Shown one piece after another: positions 1,180 through 47,179 of a stretch of DNA of 48,228 bases. Under the pieces are notes generated by a model. It was not told where the DNA came from. It was given only the letters and a program-made list of their open reading frames with translations, and ran no database searches. The DNA comes from Welwitschia mirabilis. Its lineage: Eukaryota. The position numbers and the translations under genes are program-made. The stretch is taken from positions 47,994,801 to 48,043,028 of the forward strand of contig JBOZIK010000001.1 of the NCBI GenBank assembly GCA_051453625.1, written 5' to 3'. The first letter of the stretch is position 1. Each line of letters opens with the position of its first letter.

Positions 1180-3591
1180 ATGTGACTGGATGCTGAGGGA
1201 GAGACCAAAAGGATAGTTGAAGAGATTTAAAATCAATATGATGTACTCTTTCTCTAATATTTCTATATAAAGGCTTAAACAATATTAAGACTTACATGAA
1301 GGACTAGAGAAATAAGGGCAATCAAAGACTTGAATTAAAAGAGGGTCTGGAGAAAGAATTATAAGAGATCTAAGCAGAACAGGAAAGTGGAGGCGATTAG
1401 GACATCCTTCGCAACAAGGAATATAGATGCCTTGTGATGCTTTAAGAAATAAACATGAATAAGAAGCGCTATTGGAGGGAAAGATCCAGAATTAAGTGGC
1501 TTAAAGAAGGGGATAATCATACTAAATAGTTATTCTAGCAAACTAACCAACACAAGATAAATAACAGAATTAGGAGGCTTACAATCAGGGAGTAAGTAAT
1601 TGATAATGAAGAAGATATGGCCAAGGAAATGCAGACCCACTTCAAGAACGTGTGGGAGTGGAAAGATATCACCCCGACCTTATTCCAGAAGACAAGAAAA
1701 TTTCTGATGAGGATAATGCTCACCTAATTAAACCACTAGTTAGAGAAGAATTCTAGATAACCTTGTAATATATAAAGAGCAATAGAGGTCTAGGGCCAAA
1801 TGGGTGGCCAGTAGAACTACTTAAGACCTATTTCTCCATTATGGAAGGTAACCTTCATGATGTTATGCAAGATTTTTAACAACAGATGCATTCTTATGGA
1901 GATGAATATAACTAGGGTTATTCTTATCCCTAATCACAGGACTATAGACCTCTAGGTATCTACAATGTTCTATATTGGATCTTCAAAAAAAATAATGGTG
2001 GGCCATATTTCCCCTCTTCTTTCCAAAGTGATCTTCGAGAACTAAGCTGGCTTCATCCATTTTAGGTACAAGATCAAGTCCTCCTAACTAATAAAATCAT
2101 TCATTCAGTTAAAAAGCATAACTTTTCTTTATGTATTACTAAATTAGACATAGTAAAAGCCTATGATTTTGTAATCTAAAAAACTTTAGGTTGTATCCTT
2201 AAGAAAATTAAATTTAACTCTAACATCACAAACTTATGGCTTGATATGTAAGCTTCTGCTAAGTTTATATTGGATGTTAACATCTATAGATGTAGATATT
2301 TTTTAGTAGGTTGAGGATTAAGGCAAGAGGATCCATTATCCCCATACCTCTTTCTATTCATTATGAACGTTTCATAGGGATTTCTCAGAAGCAATGCAGT
2401 CATAATAATTAAATTAAAATAGCAAGTCAAATGTTCATTAACAACCAATATGTAGATGACATAATTATTATAACTTAAACCTCCTGCCAACAGGCTAGAG
2501 CTATCAAAAATTCCATGAATCTCTTCACAGATGCTATAAGACTCCAAACTAATTGGAATAAGTCTCGAATTCATGTTTTTGACAAAAGCATCACCAAGAA
2601 GGATGAAATAGGCAGAATTTTAAACACCAAAATGGAAGATCTTCAAGACATCTACTTAGGAATTCCCCTTAGAAACTAGTATGAGTCTCTAACCTGTAAC
2701 TTTATCTTGAAGTGAATTCAAAGAAAATGAAATGCATGGCAGAATAAATTTTTCTCTTGGAAATCCAAGATCATCCCAGCAAATACCTAGCTAATTACAT
2801 CCTTCAGCTACATAGACTCTATTATCAATCCCTTTAAATTTATAATCAAAAAAATTAATAAAATGCTAAAGGACTTCATTTGATTGGAAGACAAGAATAG
2901 AAGACGCATCCACCTTTGTAAGTAGGAGCTCATTGCTCACCCCTAGTAGGTAGGAGGCTAGAGAATTCATAGTCCAGAAGATTGTCTCTTCACTAAAGCT
3001 CACAAAATAATCAAAAGACTACTTAAGGGTGGTCAATCATGGAGTGACCTACTCTATTATAAGTATCCAAGTTCAAGCTCAAGCGAAGGGGAGTTCCACC
3101 TTAGGAAATATCTTTCTAACATCAGAAGAAATCTGATAAAGCTAAACATCTCTAATGAAGACACAACCAAAATGATTTTCCTTATAAAATATGATAAAAA
3201 TAGGGCCTATAAAAGTTTTTAAGGGGGATGGATCCATGACAAGATTAAGATTTTCTACTAGTTGAAGGACTGCAATTGATTATTAATAAGAGATTAATTG
3301 CTTAAACGTGGCATTCAAGTTACTACTAATTGTTCAATCTGTCAGTCAAGTCAATAAGATGTACCACACCTATTTCATTAATGAAAATGGAGTCAAATTT
3401 AATGAAATTAATGAAAAATTACTAGAAGACTAGAAAAGTAATTAAGACACAATTGAAGGATAGGATAGGCCTGAGGTTGTGGTAGATATGGTGTACTCAT
3501 AATGATTTGATTTTCAATAATGCTCCTCTTTTCATTTCTTATAAATACTGTTAGGAGAATCAGATGGTACCATTCACAAATTTGGACAGCT
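1180..3591 (+). pseudogene. LINE ORF2 remnant (reverse transcriptase + zf-RVT), many stops and frameshifts
   Basis: Manual translation: RSRIKWLKEGDNHTK (~1482), GPNGWPVE (~1793), DYRPLGIYNVLY (~1940), KLDIVKAYDFV (~2141), GLRQEDPLSPYLF (~2315), QYVDD (~2446), YLGIPL (~2653), CSICQS..DVPHLF (~3331), W*IWCTHNDLIFNN (~3480). Confidence 0.92.
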
Positions 3592-4850
3592 ATGGAGGTC
3601 ACACCAACGTCTAAACTACTAAATCTGAGCTTGTTCGAAGGATATCTGATCCTTTGGGATAAGTTGCAGGCCCTAGGTTGGGAATCACTTTTACACAAAT
3701 TGAAAGGCGAGCCCAAGGCTGATATCACCCCATTCTACAGAAAATGGAAAGGGTACAAAATTACTTTTAGACAAATCTCAGTTAAAGTTACAGAAGAATC
3801 CCTTTCCTACCTGCTGGAAATCCCTATGGAATGGGAGAGAATTCCTCTCAAAAGTATAGAATAAAGGGAGGCTTCCCTTTTTTTTAGGAGGTGTCCCTAA
3901 GTTATCAAGTGGACACATTAGCCAGAAGGTGCTTTCTCCCCCGTAGGGTTTAGGTGTAAAGATCGTAGATAGATACTTCATTTAGTCTGGGTGTTGTTTT
4001 GAGCTTTTAAGGTTACACTTTATCTTTCTCAAGGCCTAATACCTAGGGAGTCAAGTTAATTTACCCCATTTCTTCATCTAAATGCTATGATGAAAGAATA
4101 TTATAAGGCATTTAGGACTTGTTATGGTCGTATGGAGAACCGCAAGGGATCTAAAAGTGAGGAGGCCCCCTCCCCTTTCCCTCGGCGAAGGGCTTCGAAT
4201 GATGCCTAGCAAACCAGAGGAAAAAAGAAGAAAAGAGATAAGAATGACAAAGATTCTCAACATGATGGGGATAATGAGCCAGGAGGCTCCCAGTTTCTAA
4301 GAAGGGCAACTCCACCTCCACCCCAAGAGACTCTTATAGAGGAAGTGATTCCATCCCCAATGCAGAAAGAGGGAAAATTCTAGTCTGAACTAGACCAAGA
4401 GTAAACCCCCGTAGAAGTGCAAGGAGAGGAGAATTTACATCCAGAGAAAGGCCAGGAGGACCCCCCTCAGAAGAATGTTGATAGCCCCAAACACAGTAAC
4501 CAGACAGAATCTCAGTCTAATTCTGAATCCACCTTAGAAGAATGAAATCAAGCAATACATGAGGATATTAACATGGATCATGCTAGGAGAGAGAAGTTTT
4601 GTTAGCCATAATCCATGGAATTAAGATGTGCTCTTTCTTAACCCTCATAATCTCTCATAGATTTCCATTAGATGTTATTAAATTAAGCTTTCAAAAGAAG
4701 ACCCTTAAACTTTATCCCAACAAAAACCAAGCAAGGGCAAAGGAATTTAAAGAGGTAAATTAGGCTTTCTAGGTCTTGGTAGATGAATTGGGATGATTCC
4801 TAATTTAGTACAAGCATAGCTACCTAATTCCTAATTACAAGGGATATTAA
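3592..4850 (+). pseudogene. LINE extra ORF ('ORF3') copy A: putative plant-transposon-protein-like domain, acidic/Pro-rich linker, C-terminal J-domain
   Basis: MEVTPTSKLL..LGWESLLHKLKGEPKADITPFY..VTEESLSYLLEIP..GLGVKIVDRYFI..QVNLPHF..RHLGLV; the C-terminus reads MCSFLTLIISHRFPLDVIKLSFQKKTLKLYPNKNQARAKEFKEVN*AF*VL..PNYKGY* (stop 4848-4850). Homologous to 23310-24528. Confidence 0.8.
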
Positions 4851-5400
4851 TCATATGCTTCTTATAGTTTAGATTAGTTCTTCTATAACTATGCCACGTT
4901 CTATTTTAGTCTTAGGAGCTAGGGATTTTCACCCTCATTTTTGTTGTTAACATATTATGTCTTATTTCTAGTATGTTTGCATAAATTTGTAGGCTGGTTT
5001 TTATCATTTCTAGATTTACATGTAATCCCCAATATAGGCGCTTTCATCACTCCTTATAACTATTACTCTTTTAATATAATACTTGGTTTCTTTTTCAAAA
5101 AGAGGAAAAAACAAAAAAGACCAACAGTAGCCAAAAAGCAATTTGCCAACCGCTTATTATCTAACTCCTCAACATCTGAGATTAGTTTTTGATCCCTCTT
5201 CGCTCAAGAATGGCTTTAACCAGACATATTAATTTTCAGCTTAAACTTTTATGGATGCTTCATGTTGATGAAACAACCAAATGAAACAACTTTTTTGAGG
5301 CTCTTGATTGAAAAGAGATTTCACCGAGTTGCAATAGCAGCTGCCTCATTAAATATCGCACGTGGAAGAGAAAATTTAGAAACAAGCGAAAGAAACGGAC

Positions 5401-7973: not shown

Positions 7974-8800
7974 TGTGATACCCTCTTTTATCTTACCCTA
8001 ATTAAGCACTATTTTTTTTAACTTTCTTTCTTTTTTAATATTTTTACCTGATAAACACAGCGAAACCTAGGACTAAATTCCGCTTACTCCTTAATTAGAA
8101 TTTCCCTATTCTAAAAAATAATTAATTTCTAGGTTATCTCGTTTTACAACCAATAGCGATGTCATAAGTTTGTGTCCTTCATTTCTTCCTTGTTTTTTCG
8201 TCACATAAAAGATATTCTATGAATAGTTGAGGAGATGTAAACTTCTTGTCAACATAAATAGATAAATTTTAAGGATAATACCTAATCAATATAATAGAAG
8301 ATTACAACTCCAATTAATGGCATTCCAACTCAATATTTGGCCATCCTTCAAATGTGAGTTGGTTCTAAGTCAAGTTCTAAACTATACAAACATGGTTGGG
8401 CTCAACTCTATAGGCTTTCACTTCATCTCGATATACCACTAATACAGGTGACAAGTAGTACATGAGGTGGATGCATGCTTACAAATTAACCTCGCTTCCT
8501 TGAAGCATCTCTGAATGGTACAACATGATCCATCAATGTCCAGGGCTCAAGATATTAAGTTGGAGTAAGTTCATACATGGGTAGGATAGGATAGTGGTGA
8601 TTAAATCCACTTCCAGAAGGGTATTATAAAAAATGTGATGCAATTCACCTTGGTGATGAAATCCAAGTATGGGAATGAACATTATTAAAATTATCTTAAT
8701 TTGTCCTATTCGATAAATACATTATACAAATGCATGCAAACAATTCTAACCAATGTGGATATTTAATGAATAACTTACCTAGTTATAATAGTACTAATTA
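7974..8800. mobile_element. Gypsy-type LTR fragment (terminus TGTGATACCC), same family as 1-250
   Basis: TG..ATACCC terminus at 7974; 8190-8440 matches 1-250; ~8727-8780 resembles ~18701-18755. The right boundary is uncertain. Confidence 0.45.
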
Positions 8801-8989: not shown

Positions 8990-10990
8990 TGATTGGGACA
9001 GGACATATATTTTGAGAAAAAATTTTAAATTTTTAAGGGTTATTTTAACATTTTCATAAGGCATATCTATAATGTACTTATCTGATTTGATTATGTATTA
9101 TTTAAATGAGATGAATTATGGATATTATTTAGTAATACATGTACTTAACAGTAGAATACTTGTAGTTTGTTTTCCTTACAGGAATGATATTGGTAATTCA
9201 TGACACCATGAATTAATGTAATAATGTTATGATTGATTATTTTTTATATATTTTTTATTAAATATTGTGCTTATTAACTCAAATGTTTGATTTATAAATA
9301 CTATTTTTCAGTCATCACTCTTTTTTATTATACATCCACATTATTTTTATGGTTAGATCTTATGATGATTCTTCCGTCATCACATTGAATATCTATTTTT
9401 TTTTTATGTACTAAATGTATTAAGTGGGAGGTCTAATACATAGATAAGTGTTTTGATCTTATTTTCTAATGGGCATGATTATAGGCAATTGATTTTACAG
9501 ATTGATTTTTAAAAGCTTGTTGTCTCCATTATTATCTAGATGATGTATTAGATGATAGCATGATTACATTATCTGCCAGGTAAAACATTCAATTTATTTG
9601 ATTCTAAGATTTGATCCTACATAATTATATTTCTAAACTTCATTTACATATCCCTAGTTAATGTTTATTTTAGTCAATTTGGCTCACAATTATAGTTATC
9701 TGTCAACTTTGTTAAGGAGTTACAAGGGTAAGGAGGGGCTATGTTATGATGTCAAATTATATGTTTTTAATGGAGAATTTGAGTAATTTTGTAGGACATT
9801 TAGATAGGTTTAAGTACAAAATAATAATTATTAAGAGTCAAGGAAAAAAATCATGGAAATACACAATTACCAACACATTTGAAGGCATTTTGGATCAATT
9901 TTAATAATTTAAATTTTGAGGAGGAGTTAATGATCTTCAAGGCCATTTTGACTTGATGAAACATCTTAAAGAATATCATCATCTCCTATATTATCTGAAT
10001 GACCATCTAGATGACACCAGTTGCATGCTGACTAGGATGTTGACTAGACTAATATGGAAGCTGGTATGGAATCTCTATTGATATGGCATTGTCTCCATCA
10101 TTATCTAAACAACTAAAAGGATAACACCTAATTTTAGTTAATGCACTAAACTTTAATAAACTTGTGTAATGTGTTATTTGCCTTTTGCACTATTAGGATT
10201 TTGATTGTGTCCATTAGATGTGCTATTTTTTAGTCTACTGTTGTAAATAAATACTGCCTTTACCCTTAACTTTGATCATCTTTTTTGACATCTAAAAATC
10301 CTGTTATAGGAGATCAAAGGATAGAAGGTTTATCTGTTAGTTCTAAAGAGGGGTATTCCTTGGTGTTGGACTATGTCTCCTTTATTAAGATGCTAATACT
10401 TTAGAGCAGGATATTGATTCAACTTTTAATGAAAATATTCTTTTAGATTTATTTATGTACATTTCCCTTATGGTTTATGTTGGTTAGGATTTTATTATAG
10501 TTTCATAATTAATATAGGTCATTAAGGGTAACCTTTATCAAGATCAAAATCATTAGTTTAGGATTTGCATTACATTGCATTTTATATTTTTTAGCTTAAT
10601 ATTGCATATTTTCTATATTTTATTTGATGTACTTGATGGCTTAGGTTGGTTAGAATTAGTGATATTTTTCTTAATTGATCTAGATTGTATAGGACAAATC
10701 TTAGTGATAGAGATTTGGTAGTTAGATAGATATTGCATTTAGAGCATATTGTACTTACATTGCATTAGTGTGTTTATTTTCTTACATTATCGATTTTCAT
10801 TTTGAACCTTGAAGAAAACCTAAAAATACTTTGCTTAAATTAATTCTCTAGCTTCAAGACTAGTGCCTTTGATGGATAATAACATTCGAGTTCACTCTTG
10901 TCTATACTAATGTGCATGTTTTGCAATATATTTATGATTAACAAGATTTGATAAAGGATGTAAACAATTACATAAATACGCACCGCAACA
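8990..10990 (+). mobile_element. Probable Athila-like LTR inserted into a gypsy integrase
   Basis: Ends ..GCACCGCAACA at 10990, where integrase-coding sequence resumes; Athila-like LTR 3' motifs ('tctatactaatgtgca') at ~10860-10925. The 5' boundary is a guess. Confidence 0.45.
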
Positions 10991-11675
10991 TCTATCTAAG
11001 CATAAAATCCATCATAAACTTTCTACTACTTATCATTCCTAAACAAATGGCTAAGTTAAAGTAACTAATAGAGAAATTAATAAAATATTAATAAAAATTA
11101 TAAATTTAAAGAAAATAGTTTGGGTTGAAAAATTAAGTGAAGCTTTGTAATCCTATGGAATAGCTTGGAAACATAGTACACGATTTACACCATATGAAAT
11201 GATTTATGGAAAAAAGGGCCATTTTACGAATTAAATTTATAATAAAAATCTTTCAATTAGCTAGAGAACTTAGATGCAAATTAGATAAATCTCATGAAGA
11301 ATGGATAGAAAATATGAATGTTTTAAACGGAATGAAAAAAAAGGCCCTCTTCTGTAAATAACTAATACAACATAATACTAAAGTATATCATAATACTAAA
11401 ATAAGAAAAATTAATTTCAAGTAGGAGATTGAATATTAGTCTTTGAACATAAAAAGATTCATTCAAAACAAAGTAAGAAAAAAATTGGCAAGGGCCTTAC
11501 ATTATAACAAAAATTTTAGAAAATGAAACCATCGAAGTATATGACCCTAGTGAAAAAGTAACTTATCAAATTAATGGACAAAAAATGAGAATGTATTATG
11601 AAAATAGATCTTTACTCCACTATCTAGGAAATCCCTATAGGATGGAAAAAAAAAATGCTTCCACTCAACTTATAA
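10991..11675 (+). pseudogene. Gypsy integrase core/C-terminus remnant
   Basis: LSTTYHS*TNG*VKVTNREINKIL..WVEKLSEAL*SY..FTPYEMIYGK; GPY/F module WQGPYIITKI (~11487); ends LPLNL* at 11675. Confidence 0.88.
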
Positions 11676-14600
11676 ATATAACTAGATTAGGTAATAACAT
11701 CATAATTATTTCTTTAAAGATAATTTAAACTACCAATTTATTAAAGTTTTTAAAGTAAATTGAAGTGATTTTTAGATTAAAAAAGCTAGCTTTATAAGTC
11801 TTTAATAGTAGATTAGACATCATTCATACCAAAGAGGACCAAAGATGCATCTTCCATCATATGTTAGAATATATTTAAAAAATAAATAAATAAATACATA
11901 CCATAATGTTCTATTGCAAGTGCACTAGGGCAAATATTTCTGAGGGGGCCTTTGATAGTGTAATACGGGATCTGTGAGAATTGCACTAGGGGGTTAGTTG
12001 ATTATAATCTAGATTTGGAAAATCTTATGGATCCTTACTCCTCTAATAGTGATTGCACTCTCCTCATTATAGATAAATAGTAAAGTTTGGATAATAATGA
12101 GTTAAGGAACTATTGTATTCTAAGAGTTATCTGAGACATAGCTAGTTGCTAAGACTAAACATTATCCATTATAACCACTACTATATAATCTAAAATCCTA
12201 TTCTAATATGTGATAAAATATGGGTCAAGGAACCTCTAGTTAAATTTTGGTTACTCATTAAATTTTATTTAGCTAAGGGTAAAATCTGCTTTGTTTTAAA
12301 ATCATTTAGAATTGCTATGTTAATTCGATGAATTGTTTAGGGAAAATTCTCTTTACTAAAACTATTATAATCCTTTATAAATAGAAAATAATTTTAAGAA
12401 AACTTTATTGATAATAATAAATAGAAGATTTATTAAATAAGATAAATTATTACATGATCATAAAAAGAAACTCTCCAAAACATAACAAACTCTAGCTTAA
12501 GAAGCTTAATAGCTGAAGGAAAAAAATAAAGTAACCACATGACTACCCTAAAACTAATTCTTCAAGTAGTTAGAGAATTTATTTTTTCTGCTAGAATGCC
12601 TACTTTTAGAAGATTTAGCATCACTTTCAGAAGGAGGTAATAATTATATCTCACTTAATGATTCTGTCAGCAGGTATGGATGTACATGCTCAAAATTCTA
12701 ATATGGTTCTATATTTCATATCATATTCTCTAAATTCTCCTTATTAAAACTCTAGGTAGCTAAGCTAAGCGTAGGATTAGTATAAAGCAGCTTATCAACT
12801 TTTCTCTCTAATACTTATATTTTCCTAGCTAATTTTCCTAAGAAAACATCATAAGCTAAGCTCTTTTGATTAACCTATTGATGTGGTTTTTTATCCTAAT
12901 CCTCAAATACTCATCCATCAAGTGATAAATCATAGAGCCAAGCTTATAGGGATGATCCCATTCTCAAATTATTTCTTACCATTTTCTATGATGAATTTAT
13001 CCAAAGTGTCTAAGACTCTAGCAGTTGATTTATAGCTGGAAAAAGAGAGAATAGTGAACCTCATTGTCATACTTAATAGTAATTTGAGGTGGGTAGGGTT
13101 TTATACTTCTAGTACACATGTCTATCTAAGTTAAGCCTAGCTTAAAAACACAGTGTTTTACTTTTGTAATACCAGAGGTAGAAATAGGTGAGTAAGGAGT
13201 GGATGCCATAATGATTGAGTACCAAAAAAAAAGAAAAGTTGTTAAATATTATTAGAAGGAAACTTTAAAGCTTAATGTGAAGAATGGTGGAACTCTTTAA
13301 TTAAGGATGACATTTATAAGAAAAAGCGACAGATGTAATTCATTACAAAAGTTTTAGTTACATGTGTTTACTAGTTAAGTAAAGTTAATGATCAAGTTAC
13401 ATACATGTCTTACATCACTTCTTTGAGTGTTAGGTATTCACTATAGATCTCAGTGTTAAAATAGAAAGTAAAGATTTCCTATACTAATCAAGACTCAACC
13501 TGAAGTTGAAACTTAAACTCAATATATAATCAATCTAGTTTTTTTTTTAAATTCCTCATAGTTATAAATTGTGAAGAGATTTGCATAAACTAGACTATTT
13601 TAATGATCTCTAGGTGGCAAGCTGAAATTCCACACATTATATAACTTAAGATTTTATCTTACTTATATTAATTATACTTATAGAGATGATGGTTACTTAT
13701 GTTTATAAAAAAATCTTTTTGAATTTTAATAAATTCTTCTATTAAGATTGAGTTATAATTATTTGGTTGACTAATAGTAACTTTAACTATATTTCAAACC
13801 AGCTAGATAAATAAATAAAAACCATCTCTATAAGCTTTAAATTGAAAATGCCTATTTGACTAATACCATCTCAAATTTGAAACTTTGAATCAGATTTTAA
13901 GCTAACTAGATAAATGTAAAATGCATCTTCTTAAGTTTGATAATTAAATACATCTACATAATTCAAGACTACTAGTTGACTGATACTAGCTCAATGTTTA
14001 AACTTTAAGATAAATTTCAAGCTAATACTTTATAACAGGATGAATGAGAGAACTACACTATAATAGGATAAGCCAGTATAAACCCAGAACTAAAATCCTA
14101 GATTTAACCTTTTTCATTAAGTTCTAGAGAACTTAAGAATCTTCAAAAATCCTTTTCAAATCCTTTACAAGCCTTGTAAGCAAGATTCAATGATTCTCAT
14201 AAAAAATGCTTAAGTTTTCTATGATCCTTATTGAATCCTTTATCTATGAAGAACAATGAGCACTTAAATATAAAGATACCTTCATCTTTCCTCTATCTCA
14301 AGCTCATTCTTAATGACCCTCCCACATTCTTGATGACTCTTATTAAGTTTCCACTAATGACTGACTATCACATCACCTTGATTACGTAAGAACTATCTTT
14401 CATAAACCTTTATTTATTAAATCATGCATAATTACATATCATAAATTTGCTTAACATAAATTTATTTGAAATAATTTTAGATGGAGATTTTAAGTTTTTC
14501 TTAACATAAAAAATAAGTATATCCTTACCATTTTTCTTTTGTGAATTATAATTTCTCCCATGCACAATTTCTTTCTTTTAAATGATAGCTTAACTTCATG

Positions 14601-14944: not shown

Positions 14945-17622
14945 CTTAGAATTATTATAGGAGATTATAAAATAATCACCTTCCTAAATTTTGAAAAAGT
15001 CCTTTTAGATCATTATTTGATAGAACTAAAGAAAAGCATTATTGAATTAAGATGGTGGAAATGGTTAACTTGGATGACAGCTATAATCTAGAGTAAATTT
15101 ATGAATTTTATAAAAAATTAGAATTTGAGAAAAAATTAAATTTATTATGGACAACAATTAATGATAAGAGAATATTAATTTCACAAGAAGAGGTAAGAGA
15201 GATACAACATTCACCCACTGAAGGCAAATTCATTAAAGATACTAACAAGAAAGAGCATACTACGCTAAGCATGGATTTTCTATAAAGGATTGCAATCTAA
15301 GATAGAATACCTCTAGATAAGAATTTGGAGCCTAAATATTTTATTATTTTAAGAATTATGGTAAGTAAATTGGTTCTAATTATTTACAAAAAGAAAAGCA
15401 TTACTTTAGCAGTTTGTACATGATAGCAGCCATTAAAGATAAATCAAATAGATTAAATGTTAACACTATAGAGGAAATATTCTTTAATTTACTAAGGCAT
15501 ATTCCAAAAATGGGGAAGGTTGGAATTGAAGCTTTTGATATAGATGGACTGCAGTTTTCATCTTTAAAAAGGATTTCATTTTAAATAAATAAGTCCTATG
15601 TGGATTTAACTATTTAAATTTTTTTTAGAGTGAGAGGATTAAGCCTTTTGAAATTCATAGAACAATAAGATCTAACTTCAAAAACATCTCAATCAGACCT
15701 AAGAAAACCTTCCTTAATTTCTCAACTCGGTTACCTCCACCTATACGTACGGAACAAGGAGACTCCATATAATTTACTTTTGAAGAACTTCTTCCTACTC
15801 ATCCCTTTCAATTTGGATTATTTTCCAAGGAACTAAAAGATAATAAAATTGATAGTCTCCACAATAATTTAAATTCTATAAAGGATAATATTCAAGCATG
15901 TCTTAAAATGAGAGAATACATGTTAGAATGTTAAAAATTAAAATATTTATTTAAACATTAAAAATGAATTTCTAAGACATCAGTTAAATTAGGAGAAAGA
16001 AAGAACTAACAGACCACAATAGGAAATGAATATATTTATCTCTTAGAAGCATACAAGGCAATAAGCAGGAAATTGCACAGAGCTTATGAGTGAATTACCA
16101 ATTTGGGATCTATGAAAAAAGACTAAAATAATTTAGATGCTTTTCCAAGAGATAGACGTGAGATTTTGATCAACTTAGTTTAAAATCTAGCCTCATCTAA
16201 AAAGCATGATACTGAGTATATGGAGCACAATAAAAATTTATTACATTCACATGTAATGAAGGACCTCTAAATTTAAATAAAGAATTTTTAAAAAAGTTTT
16301 ATTTAGATCTGAGAGGTATGAATGAAAAATATATGAAAAAACACAAAGAGACCCAAGAATATAGACATAACTGGATTGAGGCTAAAAAATCAGTTATTTA
16401 TTATCATCCTATATTAGAGGCTAATAAGAGAGCTATGAATCAAATGGTGGAATAAAATAAACTTTTATAGAGCAGATTATCAAGAAAAATTTCTTCTATC
16501 CACTAGATCCTATAAAATCTAAACTTAATACATATCATCCCAGAAATAAAAGATGGACTAGAAAAAGGAATGAACCTGATCCAAAACCATTTTGAAAGAA
16601 GTCCATAGGTTTAGGATATAAATTCATCTGTAAATTTTACCACTGACACTAAAAAAAATTAAGGCTCAAATTACAAATAGTATTAAATAGTCTTTAGTAG
16701 ATCTGAGAAAGGAGGTCATGATGATATGCTTGAATCTAGTTAAATGATTATTTAAATTTTGAAAAAAGAAAATATGAATTAGTTTATGAATTGCATCTCA
16801 TGGAAGTTAAGCTCAAAACAAGAATTGGCTTTGTGCATGAGGAGCCATCAATTCCTTGAAGCCTTTACTATTACCCCCAAAAATTATATGATTTTATTAA
16901 TAAATTTTAAGAACAACTAAAAAATATCATTCAAAAGACTTCTTAGGGTAATCAAAAATAAATAGAATTATTGATTCTAGCAGAAGGGAGCCTCAACTTT
17001 TGAAAATAGAATTTATGCATAAGAAAGTCAAATATCTACAAGGGAGTCTCAAGACCTTCTCCATGAGATATCAGTTAAATTTTGTAAAATAATAGAGGAA
17101 TGTGAAAAAGATATGAAGCTTTTTGCATTATCCTCTCAAGATCTACAATAATTGTATTTCCTCCAAGATAGAATTGTTCAAAATATAATATGCTTAAAGA
17201 AATCTTTACAGACATTTTTTCTAAACTAGAAAAGAGTAAGACTCTAAAGGTTTATACAATTATAATTAGAAAAACATCTAAAGAAGGATTGAGAATGAAA
17301 TCAATGCCAAAACCATCATATGAACCTTTAAGCACTAAATAAAGGATGTATTCTACTTTAAAATGAAAAGAGATAACTAAAAGCAGCTAAGAGTACCTTC
17401 AAAGAAAAGAGGTTAAGGAAGAAAGGTGGCAACCAAGAGCTAGATAAATTGGAAACCATTAGATACAAAACCAATAGACCTTAATGACCCTACTTTATAT
17501 GAGAAGCAAAGAAAAATTTTAGCTACTTCTGTAGAAGAGAAGAAATTAGCCTAGTTAGTTAAATAGCTAGAAAAATCAAATCTAGTGAAGAGCAGCCTTT
17601 TATTTTCAAGAGAAGAAACTGA
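14945..17622 (+). pseudogene. Extra 3' ORF of Athila-like element (putative plant transposon protein/ATHILA-ORF-like N-terminus plus charged, coiled-coil-like tail)
   Basis: DDSYNLE*IYEFYKKLEFEKKLNLLWTTINDKRILISQEEVREIQHSPTEG (~15074-15225), followed by long E/K-rich decayed frames ending FIFKRRN* (17620-17622). The start is approximate. Confidence 0.6.
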
Positions 17623-17735
17623 AAGAAATAAATTTATATTATTTTTTATACATATTTATTTACGTTATTGAAGAAGTAACAAAATCTTGAACTTGGGTGA
17701 AACTAATGAGTAGAAATGATGATGTCAAGTTTCAT

Positions 17736-18692
17736 TGATAAGAGAATATTTTAATGCCTTAAACTCTATTTTTCAATTAGTTATTTAATACTTCTTTTCA
17801 AGTTATTTAGGTTAACATGTTAGTAAGTTAAAATGTTAGTAGGTTAGCATATGTATTATTCCTTATGTTGCAAATACAAAATGCTAGTTGGCATAAGGAT
17901 GAGAGAGAAGAACAAGGTGGTAGAAACCAAGAAACAACCCAAATGATAAGCTATTTTTAAGGAGCAAAGAAAGGAAATTGTCTAATAAAAAGGGTATAAT
18001 GAAAGAAATAAAAATAAAAGAAAGGAAGGTAGAAGGACCTTTTGACAAAAATAGCTCAAGCAAAAGAAAATCTAAAGAGTCAAGAAGAAAGTTGCTTTGA
18101 ATAGATCTTAAAAAAGGCATAGTCAGCATCTCTAAATCTCCACTATTACCTATAAAGGAAAAACACGTTCTCATAAATACATTTTCTAAACATTTGATGT
18201 ATTTCAATTTAAATGCTAAAAAGCTAATCTTATGAATGAAGGAATTACTTTATGTTCATATTGAAAAGTAGTGTGTTTTATTATTTGATAAAGAAATGTC
18301 ACTTTAATTTGCTTCCATTTGTATATCTAAACATAGATCAGGATATTTAGCACTACTTGGAAATAGGTATTTTTTTAGCATATAGTACAATTCTTGTTAT
18401 GTTTTCCATTTTAATCATTCTTTATAATGTATAATTTGTACATAGTAATCTTATATATTAATCTTCAACCTAAATAATTCAAGTTAAATTAATCAAGAGT
18501 TGATCTTTATGATGTATTTTAAACTAAGCTAGTTGAAGATCTGATGATTTTTACTAGTTCTTTAGTAAACCTTTTGTTTTTAAATTTAACTATTTAAGCT
18601 TACTTTAGATTTAATAGCATCTTAGTTTTCTACATTTTTTAGCGTTAATTTATAATATTTTTAGTATCTATTTCAAAAATAAGCTTTTATCA
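17736..18692 (+). repeat. 3' LTR (~957 bp) of Athila-like family
   Basis: Inverted termini TGATAA...TTATCA; shares blocks with LTR 33896-34813 (e.g. 'actagttctttagtaaacctt'). Confidence 0.75.
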
Positions 18693-19136
18693 ACACCACT
18701 CAAATGCATAAATATAATCCTATCTAATATGGATATTTAATTAATTATTTACCTAAGAAAAATAATTATAAATTTATTAAGTTTATTTTATTATAAACAT
18801 TCATACATAAAAGGAAAAAAAATACATAAGTTTTACTTCATGTATTAAAAGCTAATTGTATTTGAAAAAATATAATAATTGTAATTAAGCTTGTGGAAAT
18901 ATATTCCTTCATTTCACATTAATAATAGTATCTTTTAAGGTAGAGCTAGAGTGAAGGAAGAAGCAAGGATTTGAGAAGTACCTCCTCGGTGGGGGAAAAT
19001 TTAGTTTCAAAGAATCGCAATGTGTAAGGGGTGGTATCCACTACCAGACAAGTGGGTAAGAGGTAAGTTTTAGTTTTATTCCTTTATTTAGCATTAATTT
19101 AAAACAAGATTTAAAGAGGGGCTTTTTACCCTCAAT

Positions 19137-20237
19137 ATGGAGAAGACTCGGCTCTTTAAGGAGGGAAAAACCCTAATCTTAGACATAGAGAAAGATGCAT
19201 GCTTAGAAAAATAAAGAAACTTCAATATAGTTTAATTGACAAGTTTGTTTCATCCAGCACAAGACGAAGACTCAATCTCATTAGAGACTCAATAGTCACA
19301 AAATGGATAGGGGTTAGTAAAGTTAAGGTAATATCCCTATCAAAAGGATTAGTTCTCTTCCAATTTGATAACAAATGGGATCAAGATGAGGTAATCATAA
19401 GAGGACCATGAATTTTCGGAGTTAGAGGGTTAGCCCTAGCTAAATAAATGTCACGGGTGCAATTGAACTTAAATCTAATTAAAAAGCTATCAATATGGAT
19501 TTTCATTCATAATTTTCCTCTAGAATTTTAGGATAAAGAACTATTAAAGAAAATTGCTTCTTAGTTTAAAGAATTAATAAAATTGGATAGGATAAACATA
19601 AAACAAATAAGGTTGCTCCTGGCAAGATATTGTATATCGATAAGTATTAAAAAAACAAAGGAAATTTAATACATGAAGTTTAGATTTAAATGGAGTACAT
19701 ACAATCTCAAAGTCACTTACAAGAACCTTCCAGTTATATGTGAGACATGTGGAAAGTCTAGGCACATCTTAGGAAGATGCATGATAGTAGAAAAGAGATA
19801 TTCCCATTGTGGGAGAAAAGGTTAAAAAAAGGATGAATGCAGAAAATATTTATTAACATCAAAGGAAAATAGAAGAATACATGCTCTTTTTATGATAAGA
19901 GAAGGCATAATCAGAATAATTACTAGTATAAACAAAAGAAAGATAAAATGGTAGAGAACACTACAGTCTATCCTAAAGAAAATAAGGAAAAGATCAAAGG
20001 ATATAATTCCTTTTAACAACTAATGGAGGAAGAGCCTAAAGGTACTCAGCAATGCCAGAATCCAATAAATACAAATGAGTTAAATAATGTTGAAATTCAA
20101 ATGAAGACAAACCTAGTAATAGAATTCTTTTAAACAAGAAAACCACAAAAATGGTGGCCAACAACTCCCAACTAACCAGCAAAGACATGTTGAAAAAAGG
20201 CCAAGGGGCCTCCAGAAAGGGGCAAAAACAAACTTGA
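19137..20237 (+). pseudogene. LINE ORF1 remnant (DUF4283 + zf-CCHC_4)
   Basis: SLIDKF..KWIG..SLSKGLVLFQFDNKWDQDEVIIRGP*IF..IWIFIHNFPLEF* and YKNLPVICETCGKSRHILGRC (~19718-19780). Confidence 0.85.
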
Positions 20238-23200
20238 TGAATTGTCTCACTTGAAGTTATAAGGGATTAGGGTCCTCCTATTAAAAAAAAAATTAGATAT
20301 TTGATCAATAAATTTAATATCAGCTTAGTCTATTTATAGAAAACAAATATGTGAGGTGTTATGAAATTAGATAATTTTTAGAAATAGTGGAACATTTTCA
20401 CCTCTACTATGTGAGGAAACGCAGGAGGTCTTATGACTCTTAAGAATAAAGAGGCAGAACTAGTTAACAGCAGTAAAAATCACTTAACTATATTTCTAAA
20501 AGAATAAGGATGAATCATTACAAATTTTTATGACTCTTAGAACAACCTAAACAAAGCCTCCATGTTGGAGGGCCTTCAGATGGTAGTAGCAGATAAGGCC
20601 AAGTGGCTAATAGTGGGGGATTTTAGTTAATGTCTCCACCATTAGGAGAAAATGGAGGGAAAAAATTAGAACAGTAGGGGAGTAGCAATTCTTAGATATT
20701 TTATGGTATAAAATACTTTATCAGACATACTGCTAATAGGATGCAAGTATACCTAGTCTAATAGAAGGACGGGAGGTAATCAGGTGATGTCTAGGATAGA
20801 CCAAATCCTTGCTGAAAAAGACATAGTAAAGCTTTTAATATAAGCTTGTGTTCTGAATAGAATGGCCTTAGATCATTAGCTAATTATATATAGAAAGGGG
20901 AGATAATGTCTCCTAGAGCCTCTTTCCAAATGAAATAGTATTAGATCACAAGTGCAAAAACCAAAAAGTTACTCGAGAATATCTGAAATTAATAAAATGG
21001 CATTCACCCTTTCACCTTTCTCTATAGAGGCTTAAACACCCTCAAAGCTCATATTAATAATTGGAAAAGGAAGAATAAGAAGAGATTCAAATCAAAAAAA
21101 TAGCTAGAGAAAGAGTTATAGAAAATTCAAGTTAAGCAAGAAGACAAAGAAGGTCAGGATTATATCCATAATAGAGAATATAGATGCCTCATGGAACTTT
21201 AAGAAATAAATGTAAATGAGAAAAATTATTAAAGAGAAAGATCAAGGATTAAATGACTTAAAAGGAGGGATACACATACCAAATTTTTCTTCTAGTAGGC
21301 TAACTATCACAGAGCAAATAACAGAATAAAAAGGCTTATCATTAGGGAATAGGTAATCGAAAATGAAGAGGAAATAACCAAGGAAATGCATATCCATCTC
21401 AAGGAAACATGGGAGTGGGACAATATTACCTATCCCAAAAGATAACAAAATTTCTGATAAGAATAATGCCCACTTAAGTAAACATTTAATCAAAGAAGAA
21501 ATTCAGTCAGCAATGAAATCAATGAAGAAAATATAGCTCTAGGATTACATCGTTGGCTAGTTAAATTTTTCAAGACCTACTTTCCTATTATGTAGAATAG
21601 TCTTCATAATGTAATGCAAGATATCCTTAATAGTAAACACATTCCCAAGGAGATAAATAGAAATAGGGTTATCCTCATCACCAAAAAATAGGACGCTTAT
21701 AGACCAAAAGGCTACAAACCATTAGGCATCTGCAATGTGCTATATAGAATCTTTGCAAAAATAATGATAGGCCATATCACCTCCCTGCTCCCCAAGGTAA
21801 TTTTTGAGAACCAATCTAGCTTCATCTGATTTAGGTACATTCAAGACCAAATTCTCCTAACTCACAAAATTATTCATTTTATTAAAAAGCATAAATTTCC
21901 TTTACTCATTATACAATTAGATATATAAAAGGCTTACAACTCTATTAGCTGATAATATTTAGGTTGTATTCTCAAAAAAACTGATTTCAATCAATACATC
22001 ATTAACTTATGCTTAGATATGTAATCTTCTGCTGAATTTAAATTGAAGGTTAATAGTTATATATCCAAATTTTTTTAGTAGGTTGAAGATTAAGATAAAG
22101 GGACCCTTTATCTGCATACCTCTTTATTTTTGTTATGAATGTTTTATAGGAATTTTTTAAAAGTAATGGAGTTACAAGCATCAAAATAGGAAGTTAAATG
22201 TTTATGAACAACCATGATGTTGATAACACAATTATCATGAATCAAGTCTCTTGCTAGTAAGCCAGAGCTATCAAGAACTCTATGAATCTTTTTGCAGAAG
22301 TCACAAGCCTCCAAATTAATTAGAATAAATTTAGAATTTACCTAGTAGATAAAAGCATAACTAGAAGGGGTGATATCGTCAAAATCCTAAATGCCAAATT
22401 AGGATATCTTTAGGATATCTACTTGGGAATCCCTCTATGGAATTCACATAAAACTCTAACTTGGAATTTCATCCTAGAATTAATCTAGAGGAGATGCAAT
22501 ATCTAGTAGAATAAATTCCTTTTGTCCAAAGCAAATATCATCTTAGTAAATACTTGTTTAATTTCTTCTTTCAAATACATTGCCTCTAATATTGCTCCTC
22601 CCCCTCCTTCCCCCAAAAGTTCATAATCAAAAAATCAATAGAATTTTGAAGACTTCATTTGATCAGGAGGTAAAAATAGAAGACATATTCATCTTTGTAA
22701 ATGGAAGCTTATTACTTGTCCTAAAGATTCAGGAGGTTGGAAAGTCTAAAGGTCAAAGGATTGCCTCCTCATAGGCACTCATAAAGTCCTCAAAAGACTT
22801 TTCATAGGAGGTTAACCTTGGAGTAACCTCATTAACTATAAGTACCCCACTTGAAGTTATGAAGGAGGGGAGTCCTATCTTAGAAAACACCTTTACAGTG
22901 CTAGAAGAAACTTGATGAACCTAAATATTTGTGGTGATGGCATAATCAAAATGATTCTTATCAATAAATATGGAAAAAATGAGACTTACAAAAATTTTTG
23001 AAAGAGACAAATTCTAGATAAAATTAAGATCTTTTGTTGGCTAAAGGATCATAACTGAATTCTCACCAGGGACTAACTTCTCAAGTATGGCATTAAAGTT
23101 AATTCTAACTATCCAATATGTCAATATTGTTAAGAAGATGCTCAACATCTTCTCAAATCAATGCAGATGAAGCTTAGAATTAATGATAGTTATGACAAGT

Positions 23201-23309
23201 TATTAGTGGTAGATTTGGTGCACTCACAATGAAGTAATATTCAATAATGTTTCACTTCCATTCATACAGCAAGAAAGATTAAATGGTATCATTTCCACAT
23301 AGGGCAGCA
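20237..23309 (+). pseudogene. LINE ORF2 remnant (EEP endonuclease, RT, zf-RVT)
   Basis: MNCLT*SYKGLG start; WLIVGDF (~20604); YT*SNRR..SRIDQIL; RSRIK*LK..DTHTKFF; YKPLGICNVLYRIFAK; LDI*KAY; DPLSAYLF; YLGIPL; W*IWCTHNEVIFNN. Confidence 0.92.
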
Positions 23310-24528
23310 ATGGAGCAACTCTAACAATTAAACTATTAGATCCAGACTCATTAGAAGGGTGTCCTATGCTCTAAGACAAGGTATAGGATGGGGAGATCTC
23401 CTACACAAGTTAAAAGAAGAACCTAAGGCTGATATCACCTATTCTACAAAAGATGGAGAGGGAAAAGAGCCACAATCAGAAGAGTTTTCATCGACACTAC
23501 AAAAGACTACATTTCTCACTTTTGGACATTCCAATGGTAGGGAAAAGAATCCCCCTTAAGAGAAGAAAGTACTGGAAGCCTCCTACTTCTTCCCAGGTAG
23601 CATTCCAAAACTAGCTAGTCATTATATTAGTCATAAGATGCTTTTGCCCCCATGGGGCCTAGGGGTTAAGATGATATATCGCTACTTTATTCACTCTTGC
23701 TATTGTTCAAAACTGTCAGGGCTGCATTTCACCTTTCTCAAGGCCTTAGACTTGGGGTATCAAGTTAACCTTCCCCACTTCTCTATTCAAGTGCTTCAAC
23801 AAAAAGATTCAACGAGGCATTTAGGACTAGTTATAGCTATTTAAAAGACTACTAAGGACCAGAGGATAAGAAAGGCCCCTTCTCCCCCTCCTCCTCAGTG
23901 ATAGAATTTAGTGGAGACTTCTTCTAAGAAAAAAAAAATCAAAGAAAAGGACAAAAACTAATGAGGATTCTCATTCCGAGAAGGATTTCAAGTAAAGAAG
24001 CCCCCATTCTTAGAGAGAGATGACTCTGTCCTTGGAAGTCCAAGCAAAGAAGGAGATCTCATCCCCAATGTGAAAAGAGATAATTCAAGAAGACTCCCCA
24101 GCTGAAGCCAAGGATCAGCATCAAAGACCTCTAGAGCAAGGCCAAAAGACCCCCTCTTAGAAGGTAGAAAGTAGTTTCAATTATAGTTAGGAGTTAAATT
24201 GCTACTTCCACTTAGGTTCCTCCCTTAAAGATTAAAATTAAGATCCCCGTAAAGACATTGACATGGATCACGCAAAAACAAAAGTCTTACTAGCTACCAG
24301 TCATGGTCTAAAAATATGCCCCTTATTGACCCTAGGAGTTTCACATAGATCTTACCTGTAAGCCATTAATTTAAATTACCAAAAGAATGCTCTCAAGGCA
24401 AGAACCAAATAGTAGCTAGGTAGTTTAAGGAAGTAAACCAGGCATTTGAGGTATCAGTAAGTGAAATAGGTCGCTTTCTGGTTAAGCACCATCACAGTAA
24501 CCTCTCACCTAATTATAGGGGATATTAA
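23310..24528 (+). pseudogene. LINE extra ORF ('ORF3') copy B with C-terminal J-domain
   Basis: GWGDLLHKLKEEPKADIT..PPWGLGVKMIYRYFIHS..QVNLPHF..RHLGLV; the C-terminus reads ICPLLTLGVSHRSYL*AINLNYQKNALK[10-nt deletion]KNQIVAR*FKEVNQAFEV..PNYRGY* (stop 24526-24528). Confidence 0.82.
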
Positions 24529-27500
24529 TCCTCTATTTCTTCAAGTTATACATAGTTGTTTTTTAGTATTTTCTAGTCCATTATTAAGTTCAATAGTTAG
24601 TGGTATTTTCACCCCCACTTTTGCTTTATACCCAATAGGTTCTCATGATTTCTGTAGTTTGGTTTTTGCTTTACCAGTCAGGATTTTTATTCCCCTCAAT
24701 ATAAGGAATTTTCTCTCCCCATGTAAATTTTATTTTAATATAATTCTCTTTTTTTTTTAAAAAAAAAGNNNNNNNNNNNNNNNNNNNNNNNNNNNNNNNN
24801 NNNNNNNNNNNNNNNNNNNNNNNNNNNNNNNNNNNNNNNNNNNNNNNNNNNNNNNNNNNNNNNNNNNNNNNNNNNNNNNNNNNNNNNNNNNNNNNNNNNN
24901 NNNNNNNNNNNNNNNNNNNNNNNNNNNNNNNNNNNNNNNNNNNNNNNNNNNNNNNNNNNNNNNNNNNNNNNNNNNNNNNNNNNNNNNNNNNNNNNNNNNN
25001 NNNNNNNNNNNNNNNNNNNNNNNNNNNNNNNNNNNNNNNNNNNNNNNNNNNNNNNNNNNNNNNNNNNNNNNNNNNNNNNNNNNNNNNNNNNNNNNNNNNN
25101 NNNNNNNNNNNNNNNNNNNNNNNNNNNNNNNNNNNNNNNNNNNNNNNNNNNNNNNNNATATATATAGTATTAATAATATTACATAAAAAAATAATATTAA
25201 AGTACACACTTCTTAAGTAAGTGATCAAAAGAATTTCACTTATTATCTAAGAACAAAGGCCTTAATAATAAAAGCATAAATTATACTTTATTAAAGAACA
25301 TTTAAAAAGATAATATAAAATGAAATTATTTTTAATATTATCCTTTTTAAATTATTTAATTGTTACAATAATTTTATTGAATAAATTTTATATGATTAAC
25401 GACATTAATTATAGATTTATTTTACCTTTATAAGAGATGTTATACTAAAAATTAATACTTTATTTTTTTACACTAAAAGATAAATTATGATAAATATTAT
25501 TAAAGTAGACTTATGATATAGTCTCTAGAAATTAACTTTATCAAGTTTAGATTCCTATAGTTATATTTTCTAAGATTATAATATAATTGTAAAGATTATT
25601 TAAATTTTTAGAGTTATTAAATTACCACACCACATTAAAAAGGTTATAACTTTTAAAATACTTCAAATTATTAAGTGATTGAGAACTCCCTAAAAATATT
25701 ATTTAATTATCTATAATGTAGACTAGCCATTTATTACAAACTATAAATTATTAATTTTATAACTAAAATAAATTACTTGTTATTTTCTATTTTATTTTAA
25801 GTTATTTCATAAAATAATTTTTAAAAATGTACTAGATCTTTAAAAAAAATACTATTTTTAAATTTATAATCTTAAAATACTTTTAAAATTACCAAAAAAA
25901 ATCTCATTAAACTTTATTTAATATATAAGAGTTTATAATATTTTTAAGTTATGCCACCTTTTGAGAATTTTGAACTTTAGCTATAATATAAACATAAAAA
26001 TATAGAAATAAATTTAAGAAACTATAGTTGATAAAATTAATATAAATATCTAATATAAATAGTCCATGTAATATAAAAAATAAATTTTAACTACTCCAAA
26101 TCAACATCAGTTAAGGAAAAGTAATGTGTAAGATTAATTTAAAATAAACAAATTCAATGAGCCTTAGGATTAACATAAAGGAGTAGCTAGCGTAAATGAG
26201 ATTAAGGATCAGATAATTAATCCTAAGTAGAGGATTGTGATGCATATTTGATACATAATAAAACTATAAAAATCATTCAATCTTTCATAATGCACAATGA
26301 AAATGATTACCTCAATATTAAATAGAATTCCTTGATCCCTTGGCCAAAATTTTCCATTGGTAATCTTATCAACTAAATATGTAAAGAGATTTCTCAAACC
26401 TCTCCATCTTCTTGATTTGAATCTAATGGAATAAATAATCTTATTAAAATAAATTTTACAATAAGCATATGTAATGACCTAAAGCAATAATATAGCATGC
26501 CACTAACATTCTTAAAAATGAAAAAAAATAAGTAGAGGAAACCTACTTGAAAATGTAATGATTAAAAATTTCTATGAGATAAAGAATGGATTAGGTTAAT
26601 TTATAAGTTCTAATTTTGAAGTTCTANNNNNNNNNNCTAGTATCCGAGCTCTAAGCTCCAAGCTCTATACTTCAAACCAAGAGGATGAAAAAGAAACAAG
26701 ATAAACATGAAAGAATGAGAAGGAAATCTAATAGCATGAACTTTTATAAAAATGAAAAAATTGATTTACAAGAGAGGAAAGGGCTTTATTTATAGTAAAT
26801 AATAAGCTAAATTTCTTTGATTTAATTAGTTAAAAACCCTTAACATAATTGTATTCATAAGGTAATATTATCATATTAAATTAGGTAAGATTACCCATAT
26901 TGAATTAGATAAGATTAATTATTTATTAATTGGACGAGCTTAAGTAATAAGTGACATTGATGTATGAATTATATGAACACATTATCTTTATAACTCATAT
27001 ACCTCCTATCCAAGATGATTAATACTCTTACCTTAATAAACAAGGTCAATTACATACCTCAGTTCCTCATCCTAGTTCCTTTTTAATTCTTCATAGGCTC
27101 ATAACCATATTTAACCAATTCAAAAACATAATTTAAATAATGAGTAATATGCATTAAAGGAACACTGATGCACAAATTTCAAAACTACCATGTGTAATAA
27201 TGAGATAATTTTTTCAACCCCAATAATGAATAAAATAAATATTTTATAAACTAATTAATTTTATAAATATCAAGAATCATAAAAATCATGGGAGAGTAAA
27301 ATATACTCTTTCATTCTTATTAGTTTAGAGATAAGAGTACACATCCTTATTCAAATGATCATTAATTTCAAGATATATCAAATTCATTAACAAAAACATA
27401 AAAAAGAAAGTATCATAATAGAATGGAGTACACTCAATCTTGTTATCTACTTCTTTTATCAACTATATTACTCATTTATTCTTACTAAGTATTTTCATTT

Positions 27501-39178: not shown

Positions 39179-39242
39179 ATTGGTGTCAGAGCTAAGTTAA
39201 ACCTTCTTCAAATTTTAACCAATCTAGAATTTATAACCTTAC

Positions 39243-41602: not shown

Positions 41603-42101
41603 ATTATATGAATGACGATATTGAAAATAGAAATGTTAGCTTAAATTTTAGTAAAACTAAATGTTTTTTAGAAAATTCTAAAGTAACACCCCATTTCTGG
41701 AACTTTCTTATCAATTACAAACATGAACTAGGGGTTAACTCATTGTCCTCTGGCTAATTATAGGGTAGTTGACTGGATGTGGTCAGTCAACTAGCCTAAA
41801 AGCCTAGTCACTTGGACCTCTTCCTATGCCATAGACTTGCATCTTGACAGGTCAACTGAAAATATGATCGATCGACCGGACCTGATAAATTACAATGTAG
41901 AAGTATCATCAGTGGACCCGATTTCATTCTTCAAGTTACCCTATTTTACCTTGTTTATAAAATAAAGAGGCCCCTAAATCATTTTTATTATGTTCTAGCC
42001 CTCTCTATCTCTTAGATCTAAAGCTTATCCTTCTAGATCCAGAGCTTTACTTATAGATCTAGTGTTATTCTCTCATTTTTCTTACCTCTAGGCTCTTAGA
42101 A

Positions 42102-43150: not shown

Positions 43151-43703
43151 AACCTTGATTATGTTTTGCTTATGAGTTTTTGTTCTCTCTTTTGTTATTG
43201 ATGTCAAAAGAGGGAGAATTAATTGTTTATTATTGTTTGTTACTTATGCTTTTAAATGTAGTATACTCTTGATAAGCACTTTTATTTTATAATGCTTACA
43301 TATATTTAATGGAATCAACATGCACTTAGTTCTATGTTTTCAATTGGTATCTAAAATCCTTTTGTGAAAATCATATGAGCTTAACATTTTCCCAATGATG
43401 AATATTAAAGTTTTGAATGATTATCCCATAAATTCAAATGTTGATATCCCATATTGGAAATGAACTCTAAAAAGTGTCAATGATCAATATGTTAAATGGT
43501 TTATGTGATTACATTATGCTTTTTATAAAATTTGTGTTCTCAACTCTCTAAGTGTGCATCCTAAAATTGGTTTTATTATTAGCATAAAATTTGACTATTA
43601 ATGTCTTATAAAAAATGATAGGCATTTTGTAAGGGGGAGTTTCCTAAGTCCTAAATATTTTTACAACCAAGTATTATTTGCCATCAATGTTAAAGAGGAA
43701 GAT

Positions 43704-46147: not shown

Positions 46148-46184
<37 letters not shown>

Positions 46185-47100: not shown

Positions 47101-47179
47101 AAGAGGGAGGGGGAAGGAGGAACAGAGGGAGGGAAAGAGAGGGAGGGAGAGGGAGGGAGGGACAGAGAGGAAGGGAGAG

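Follow-up and report, generated by a model that had tools for sequence, protein, structure and literature searches.

A decayed J-domain behind the reverse transcriptase of an L1-type LINE family in Welwitschia mirabilis

Two L1-type LINE copies and the extra region at their 3′ ends

The window analyzed in this study, that is, the whole stretch of DNA, comprises 48,228 nt of Welwitschia mirabilis (assembly GCA_051453625.1, contig JBOZIK010000001.1, positions 47,994,801-48,043,028, forward strand) and is AT-rich, full of repeats and plant-like. Two L1-type LINE copies lie on its plus strand. Copy A, from 1419 to about 5125, is 5′-truncated and lacks ORF1, and copy B, at about 19270-24768, spans from ORF1 to an assembly gap just past its A-run. 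The two copies were aligned collinearly by blastn over 1419-4125 (A) and 21176-23834 (B) with 67.3% identity in 2751 columns, and again over 4564-4869 and 24254-24547 with 63.4% identity. Pfam domain scans, run on translations in which stops were replaced by X, detected RVT_1 in copy B (E 3.4e-10, 40.4 bits) and, slightly below the cut-off of 29.6 bits, in copy A (E 3.5e-6, 27.3 bits). The zf-RVT domain scored 29.1 bits in copy B (cut-off 27.5) and 21 bits in copy A, and the ORF1 domain DUF4283 (PF14111) was found upstream in copy B (E 1.9e-15), while no Exo_endo_phos (AP-endonuclease) match at E ≤ 0.01 was obtained in the three frames of the heavily decayed stretch 17001-23302. Both copies end in an A-rich tail. 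No convincing target-site duplication was found around copy A, and the 3′ flank of copy B is the assembly gap. The features of the two copies are as follows.

1419..3591, plus strand: copy A, ORF2 remnant, 5′-truncated (Pfam; collinear with copy B from 1419; third-position excess)
about 2063-2395 and about 3226-3381, plus strand: copy A, RVT_1 and zf-RVT, respectively (Pfam)
about 3510-3521 and 3541-3573, plus strand: copy A, IFNN motif and conserved tail INTVRRIRWYH, respectively
3592..4171, plus strand: copy A, N-terminal conserved domain, here the N-domain (protein identity to copy B; synonymous to nonsynonymous counts)
4172..4560, plus strand: copy A, low-complexity linker (composition; highest A-B divergence)
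4561..4850, plus strand: copy A, lead-in EDINMDHA and J-domain (PF00226, PDB matches, codon-position tests)
4713-4721 and 4830-4850, plus strand: copy A, YPN at the HPD position, and PNYKGY with the TAA stop, respectively
4851..5122, plus strand: copy A, 3′UTR (to about 5097) and degenerate A-rich tail (aligns to copy B; no codon periodicity)
19271..19637, plus strand: copy B, ORF1 DUF4283 domain (PF14111)
21176..23309, plus strand: copy B, ORF2 remnant, including IFNN motif and tail (Pfam; collinear with copy A)
about 21683-22025 and about 22966-23163, plus strand: copy B, RVT_1 and zf-RVT, respectively (Pfam)
23310..24528, plus strand: copy B, extra region with N-domain (to about 23890), linker and J-domain remnant (24254-24528)
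24529..24768, plus strand: copy B, 3′UTR and first part of the A-run, up to an N run (assembly gap) at 24769-25157

In the translations, the reverse transcriptase (RT) active-site box (about 2540-2580 in copy A) reads YVDD in copy A and DVDN at the aligned site of copy B; in plant L1 elements this box is usually FADD.

Between zf-RVT and the common 3′UTR, both copies carry an extra coding region of about 1.26 kb, and the proposal of the initial annotation that two L1-type copies share about 1.25 kb of decayed coding sequence was borne out by the Pfam matches and the blastn collinearity. Because the copies are collinear from RT to tail, the extra region holds an equal position in A and B. It starts at one aligned site with ATG-GAG in copy A and ATG-GA in copy B, in both cases read as ME, and ends at one codon with CCT AAT TAY ARG GGA TAT TAA, which gives PNYKGY (A) or PNYRGY (B) followed by the stop, so that the shared start and end that had been proposed were both recovered in the aligned copies. 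The proposed layout of an N-terminal block, a linker and a C-terminal J-domain also held, with a conserved N block of about 193 codons.

Both window copies are long dead. In copy A, the N2, linker and J segments contain 6, 4 and 4 in-frame stops, respectively, besides the terminal stop, and the reading frame changes at least three times across the extra region. Of the 33 gap events in the A-B alignment, 29 are frameshifting, and relative frameshifting indels occur once per about 105-160 nt. No third copy of the extra region is present within the 48,228-nt window, and no intact copy was found among the two decayed window copies and the summary tables of short contigs.

Other repeats were also found in the window. 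A decayed copia-type LTR retrotransposon occupies 37847-44282; its LTRs are direct repeats (37847-38373 and 43766-44282, 77-81% identical) that flank a gag domain (PF14223, E 3e-14) and a Pol beta-barrel domain, and a 100-nt segment with a CCHC knuckle is duplicated across an assembly gap (40126/40509, 98% identical). Downstream of the copia pol, 42102-43120 contains an ORF that is spread over two frames and continues into an acidic tail rich in Glu and Asp; its part at 42659-43120 matched PF20167 (Transposase_32) weakly (E 0.019, 15.3 bits, cut-off 45). The layout of this copia-borne ORF, a domain with a charged tail, recalls the N-domain and linker of the LINEs, with no significant similarity. 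In addition, a repeat unit of about 1.2 kb occurs once in 10987-12098 and twice in tandem in 45171-47666 (60-82% identity), and two dispersed copies of a repeat of about 240 nt are located at 12-250 and 8196-8439 (85-87% identical, 8.2 kb apart).

Family-wide presence, reading frame and selection

Logan contigs from two DNA runs (X1 and X2, which carry two organism labels) were mapped to 3000-5150 at a likeness of at least 80%. The results showed that 2334 (X1) and 2092 (X2) contigs covered this stretch, with depth in 30 of the 30 bins, contig depth not being equal to copy number. The ORF2/ME site at 3592 was bridged by single contigs (X1 records 3 and 4), and so was the border between the J-domain and the UTR (X1 record 8 and X2 record 14); other family contigs leave copy A at 5101 into poly-A. 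Since contigs span the whole stretch in both runs, the module is a family-wide trait of an abundant family, and the claim that the region belongs to the LINE family rather than to a local insertion was confirmed.

The contigs also read sense codons at stops of copy A. At the TAA stop 4037-4039, 83 contigs per run have T at 4038, giving Leu as in copy B, and at the TGA stop 4543-4545, G was found at 4543 in 22 (X1) and 13 (X2) contigs. At position 3392, within zf-RVT, an extra C as in copy B was present in only 24-31% of the contig depth, while about 70-75% shared the 1-nt loss of copy A. The loss is therefore a subfamily marker and not a private mutation, and a source element whose ORF2 end was already damaged may have given rise to a large part of the A-like subfamily. 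That the frame changes of copy A are family-wide, as the lack of common indels would suggest, was rejected, as the aligner clips (compare the loose ends at 3523 and 3890). At 80% likeness, two RNA runs gave 7 and 4 partial reads, mostly at 5016-5150, which are uninformative on expression. The last approximately 80 nt of the 3′UTR (5016-5097) reached an X1 contig depth of 6044, compared with 60-1200 elsewhere, and 5063 is the entry point of many contigs and of the few RNA reads, which exit at 5097 into a different common sequence. This segment may be common to another abundant, possibly expressed repeat, for example a tail-borrowing SINE.

The reading frame was then followed from the ORF2 end into the extra region. 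The longest open frame in either copy belongs to copy A, where it extends from 3511 to 3861 and includes the ORF2 tail and ME. The conserved tail peptide is INTVRRIRWYH in A and IHTARKIKWYH in B, and its comparison, read by hand, revealed 5 synonymous third-position changes in 15 codons; because these changes are synonymous at third positions, the tail peptide is coding in the ME frame. The IFNN motif and the tail are in different frames in both copies, and the T-rich stretch between them is 8 nt longer in copy A than in copy B. Among the X1 contigs, 18 diverge from copy A after 3523, and their consensus, read by hand at an agreement of only 0.62, extends the IFNN frame stop-free into a tail-like peptide. 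Further downstream, the consensus of 22 contigs before 3890, also read by hand, has 2 nt more in a T-run than copy A, and therefore the N1 and N2 segments of the N-domain join in one frame. In copy B, the lead-in DIDMDHA runs into the J-domain in a single frame. One long ORF2 with a C-terminal extension is thus probably a better reading than a third ORF, and we infer that the extension would be translated as part of a single ORF.

In contrast, the initial annotation described the region as a separate third coding region, which did not hold as written, as no stop between the tail peptide and ME is present in either copy. Such an ORF would begin at the ATG-GAG at 3592 or at the ATG at 3520 further upstream, overlapping the end of ORF2 in the +1 frame. 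We consider it unlikely; its translation through reinitiation, leaky scanning or frameshifting is unlikely to the same degree. The ATG with G at -3 and +4, placed at the same site in both copies, favors it, and so does the arrangement in copy A, where a stop closes the IFNN frame at 3552, while the next frame, open from 3511 on, has an ATG at 3520. Judged from A and B alone, a single 8-nt deletion in copy B would suffice if the arrangement of copy A is ancestral, but the consensus of the 18 other contigs carries the IFNN frame into the tail, and the tail peptide is under selection in the ME frame. Both copies switch frame in one short T-rich stretch, and with A and B alone an ancestral +1 overlap would save one event; however, at the indel frequency given above, coincident frameshifts in a T-rich run are not rare.

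Mismatches between A and B were counted per codon position on a MAFFT alignment to evaluate the extra region as coding sequence. The mismatch fractions at positions 1/2/3 were 0.25/0.23/0.49 in RT/zf-RVT (2400-3300, p 6e-9), 0.27/0.28/0.47 in N1 (p 0.03), 0.36/0.19/0.48 in N2 (p 0.008) and 0.31/0.20/0.57 in the J segment (p 0.0002), while periodicity was not significant in the linker (p 0.13) and absent from the 3′UTR (0.33/0.39/0.39, p 0.79). The frames chosen by this mismatch test were those of the conserved peptides and of the Pfam match. When transversions alone were counted, the pattern was unchanged, and GC at third positions was not above that at first positions; therefore, hypermutable third positions do not explain the pattern.

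Synonymous and nonsynonymous differences were further counted on codon pairs differing at one base, and the true frame was compared with the pooled off frames by Fisher's test. The synonymous to nonsynonymous counts in the true vs. off frames were 71:54 vs. 43:189 in RT (p 3e-13), 22:23 vs. 20:62 in N1 (p 0.006), 21:12 vs. 14:51 in N2 (p 1e-4) and 25:13 vs. 6:62 in J (p 1e-9). Since the module shares its junctions in both copies, the A-B differences postdate its acquisition, and since the codon-position pattern is that of RT and is absent from the 3′UTR, the region evolved as coding sequence in the LINE lineage. The third-position and synonymous to nonsynonymous tests thus upheld the claim that the region is real coding sequence, and the substitution pattern indicates that the N-domain and J-domain evolved like RT, under purifying selection inside the LINE lineage. 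Where copy A stands apart from almost every relative within the N-domain and J-domain, the differences numbered 6, 5 and 2 at positions 1, 2 and 3, respectively (13 differences, counted by hand among the 40 rows listed of 546), a spread that is the expectation for neutral decay after insertion.

These counts bear on a further reading, in which template switching or transduction added a fragment of a host mRNA or gene, coding for a protein with a C-terminal J-domain, to the 3′ end of the LINE, where it was a passenger of no use to the element. LINEs can transduce flanking sequence, the J-domain is of an ordinary cellular DnaJA/B type, and the zf-RVT frameshift common to most of the A-like subfamily suggests that the 3′ part was dispensable late. 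Nevertheless, this reading is improbable: the A-B divergence postdates the capture and has the codon-position pattern of RT, synonymous changes are 3- to 20-fold enriched over the off frames, the stop codon and the protein end are conserved whereas the 3′UTR beyond is not periodic, and the searches brought up no host homologue for the N-domain.

Domains of the extra region

The last 87 codons of copy A (4587-4847, with four internal stops read as X) matched PF00226 (DnaJ) at 28.7 bits (E 1.4e-6, cut-off 27.8), covering profile positions 6-56 of 63. The predicted match of the C-terminus to PF00226 was thus obtained for copy A; neither of the two copy B J pieces matched Pfam. In the whole-frame Pfam scan, PF00226 appeared in one of six translations, below the cut-off of 27.8 (E 1.8e-5, 25.2 bits). 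A phmmer search of the J piece against PDB returned 32 sequences at E ≤ 1, of which 28 have DnaJ/Hsp40/Sis1/Ydj1-type names, three are unrelated and the name of the remaining one is uninformative; the top 13 are all named J-domain proteins. The best match was dnj-12 (E 1.4e-4), followed by DNAJA1, and in these alignments helix II, the loop and helix III are covered with no gap. When the poorly aligned J pieces of A and B were combined into a profile, it matched nothing in PDB. Single-sequence AlphaFold prediction of the decayed J piece produced helices at 2-23, 28-42 and 48-57 at a pLDDT of 58.6, and Foldseek with this low-confidence model found no match in PDB. A word-indexed search of the J piece against longer proteins, weak because a decayed query had to match by exact 5-residue words, yielded 474 candidates, none of which was scored. 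By its sequence matches, the region ends in a J-domain of canonical, DnaJA/B-like type.

The HPD tripeptide between helices II and III is required to stimulate the Hsp70 ATPase. In copy A, this loop reads Tyr-Pro-Asn (TAT CCC AAC), and in copy B it is removed by a 10-nt gap at 24397. YPN and HPD are separated by one C>T and one G>A transition, both of a kind that ranks with the most frequent differences of copy A from its contig relatives, and the ancestral element would have carried an HPD motif.

That the match is a chance likeness in decayed AT-rich sequence with no J-domain is very improbable, for although the score is modest, HPD is absent from both copies, the copy B pieces had no Pfam match and the PDB profile search was empty, the score exceeds the curated Pfam cut-off, the top 13 PDB matches are J-domain proteins aligned in register, and the Pfam-matching frame is the one chosen independently by the codon-position test.

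The N-domain comprises about 193 codons (3592-4171), with an A-B protein identity of 54-59%; in N2, 58 of the 117 alignment columns are invariant. In copy A it is read in the frame of 3592 to about 3885 and then in the next frame, owing to a 2-nt loss in a T-run. None of the four in-frame N-domain pieces had a Pfam match at E ≤ 10, and the whole frames had none at E ≤ 1. With these negative profile tests, the kinship to PF20167, PF03078 or PF10536 that had been considered for the N-domain was not borne out. Its comparison with the PF20167-like copia-borne ORF (42659-43120) was not significant either (BLASTP E 0.70, hhalign E 0.16 and 0.93), and this candidate was rejected. The copy B N-domain (180 residues, partly out of frame) had no phmmer match among 1.84 billion representatives. 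Word-indexed searches, here also weak because decayed queries were matched by exact 5-residue words, produced 193 candidates for the N-domain against proteins of similar length and 49 for copy A N1 within a 1000-residue frame, and none was scored in either case. For the extra region, metagenome contigs gave 595 protein-pattern matches, of which none was confirmed, and no match to a 23-base pattern; none of 57 pattern matches in viral contigs was confirmed. The best ESM Atlas score for a copy B N2 piece was 0.76, which is a lead only, and the structure model of N2 (pLDDT 37.9) was unusable. As far as sequence comparison can tell, the N-domain remains an orphan, with no detectable relative in the searches made.

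The linker is the segment of highest A-B divergence. Its frame is that given in the initial annotation, from about 4172, and in this frame it consists of 13% E, 11% P, 9% Q and 8% each of S, D and K. It contains a Lys-rich patch, GKKKKRDK, and a K-rich patch is common to copy B; by sequence, the Lys-rich patch may be a nuclear localization signal. Reading the linker as a continuation of the N2 frame, as the pooled counts had suggested, was dropped on the basis of finer windows and the shared K-rich patch.

Comparison with known elements and proposed role

Full-text literature searches of main articles returned nothing relevant on a J-domain or DnaJ in LINEs or other retrotransposons, and a term search of one review of transposon classification found neither 'DnaJ' nor 'chaperone'. 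The combination of a LINE and a J-domain was thus not found in the literature searched, while a foreign domain at the ORF2 C-terminus is already known. The ORF2 C-terminus has been described as tolerant of foreign domains (Lazareva et al., 2015, PMC4686597): plant L1 elements with an archaeal-type RNase H at this position are cited there (Smyshlyaev et al., 2013), and insect R1 LINEs carry a tobamovirus-like SF1 helicase at the ORF2 C-terminus, behind a spacer of more than 300 residues that resembles nothing known (PMC4686597).

As described there, the RNase H-bearing plant L1s resemble the present family in that a foreign domain lies behind RT/zf-RVT of ORF2, a modular C-terminal gain. They differ in that here a J-domain follows an orphan domain and a linker, rather than a nuclease whose part in reverse transcription is obvious. 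With the helicase-bearing R1 LINEs, the family shares a long spacer, as about 320 residues (N-domain and linker) precede the J-domain, while the LINE clade, the host kingdom and the acquired domain are different.

Likenesses also exist outside retrotransposons. The T antigens of polyomaviruses have an N-terminal J-domain that engages host Hsc70, and like these, the family described here is a selfish element with a J-domain of its own rather than the Hsp40 of the host. However, polyomaviruses are DNA viruses with no reverse transcriptase, their J-domain is N-terminal, and homology is implied only for the J-domain fold. The best sequence matches, including the FKEVNxAFxVL motif, are to cellular class A/B proteins (DNAJA1, dnj-12, Sis1, Ydj1). 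In these proteins the J-domain is N-terminal and is followed by a G/F region and client-binding domains, whereas the LINE J-domain lies at the extreme C-terminus and, unlike theirs, has HPD preserved in neither of the two copies.

The explanation that we favor, and regard as probable, is that in a plant L1 family the C-terminus of ORF2 was extended by an orphan domain of about 190 residues, a linker and a J-domain, acquired once and maintained by selection. In the protein, zf-RVT and a tail helix would be followed by the orphan domain, then by about 130 residues of disordered acidic/basic linker and, at the very end, by the J-domain. The module would have been gained once, before the split of A and B, and then kept by purifying selection.

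Hepadnaviral RT and telomerase depend on chaperones and use host co-chaperones. In the LINE family, the J-domain may bring host cytosolic Hsp70 in cis to the ORF2 protein or its ribonucleoprotein, and the recruited Hsp70 may aid the folding, assembly or remodeling of the RT complex. Given an intact HPD in active elements, the J-domain would dock on the nucleotide-binding domain of Hsp70 and trigger ATP hydrolysis, by which Hsp70 would be loaded onto nearby segments of the ORF2 protein or ribonucleoprotein, the long linker giving reach. We infer this recruitment by analogy with established J-domain biology, and a benefit to the element would follow the same reasoning. It is quite possible, if still tentative, that an autonomous retrotransposon lineage gained an Hsp70 co-chaperone of its own as a fusion to its RT/endonuclease protein and kept it under selection.

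If so, this would be the first known retroelement to recruit host Hsp70 in cis, and it would additionally carry a domain of about 190 residues with no detectable relative. It would imply that Hsp70 recruitment can limit retrotransposition enough to be selected in cis, and that the ORF2 C-terminus also gains modules that are not nucleic-acid enzymes. The orphan N-domain, conserved across both lineages, is a second unknown worth a structure, and the J-domain would offer a natural handle for finding the step at which Hsp70 is needed in the assembly of LINE ribonucleoproteins or in target-primed reverse transcription.
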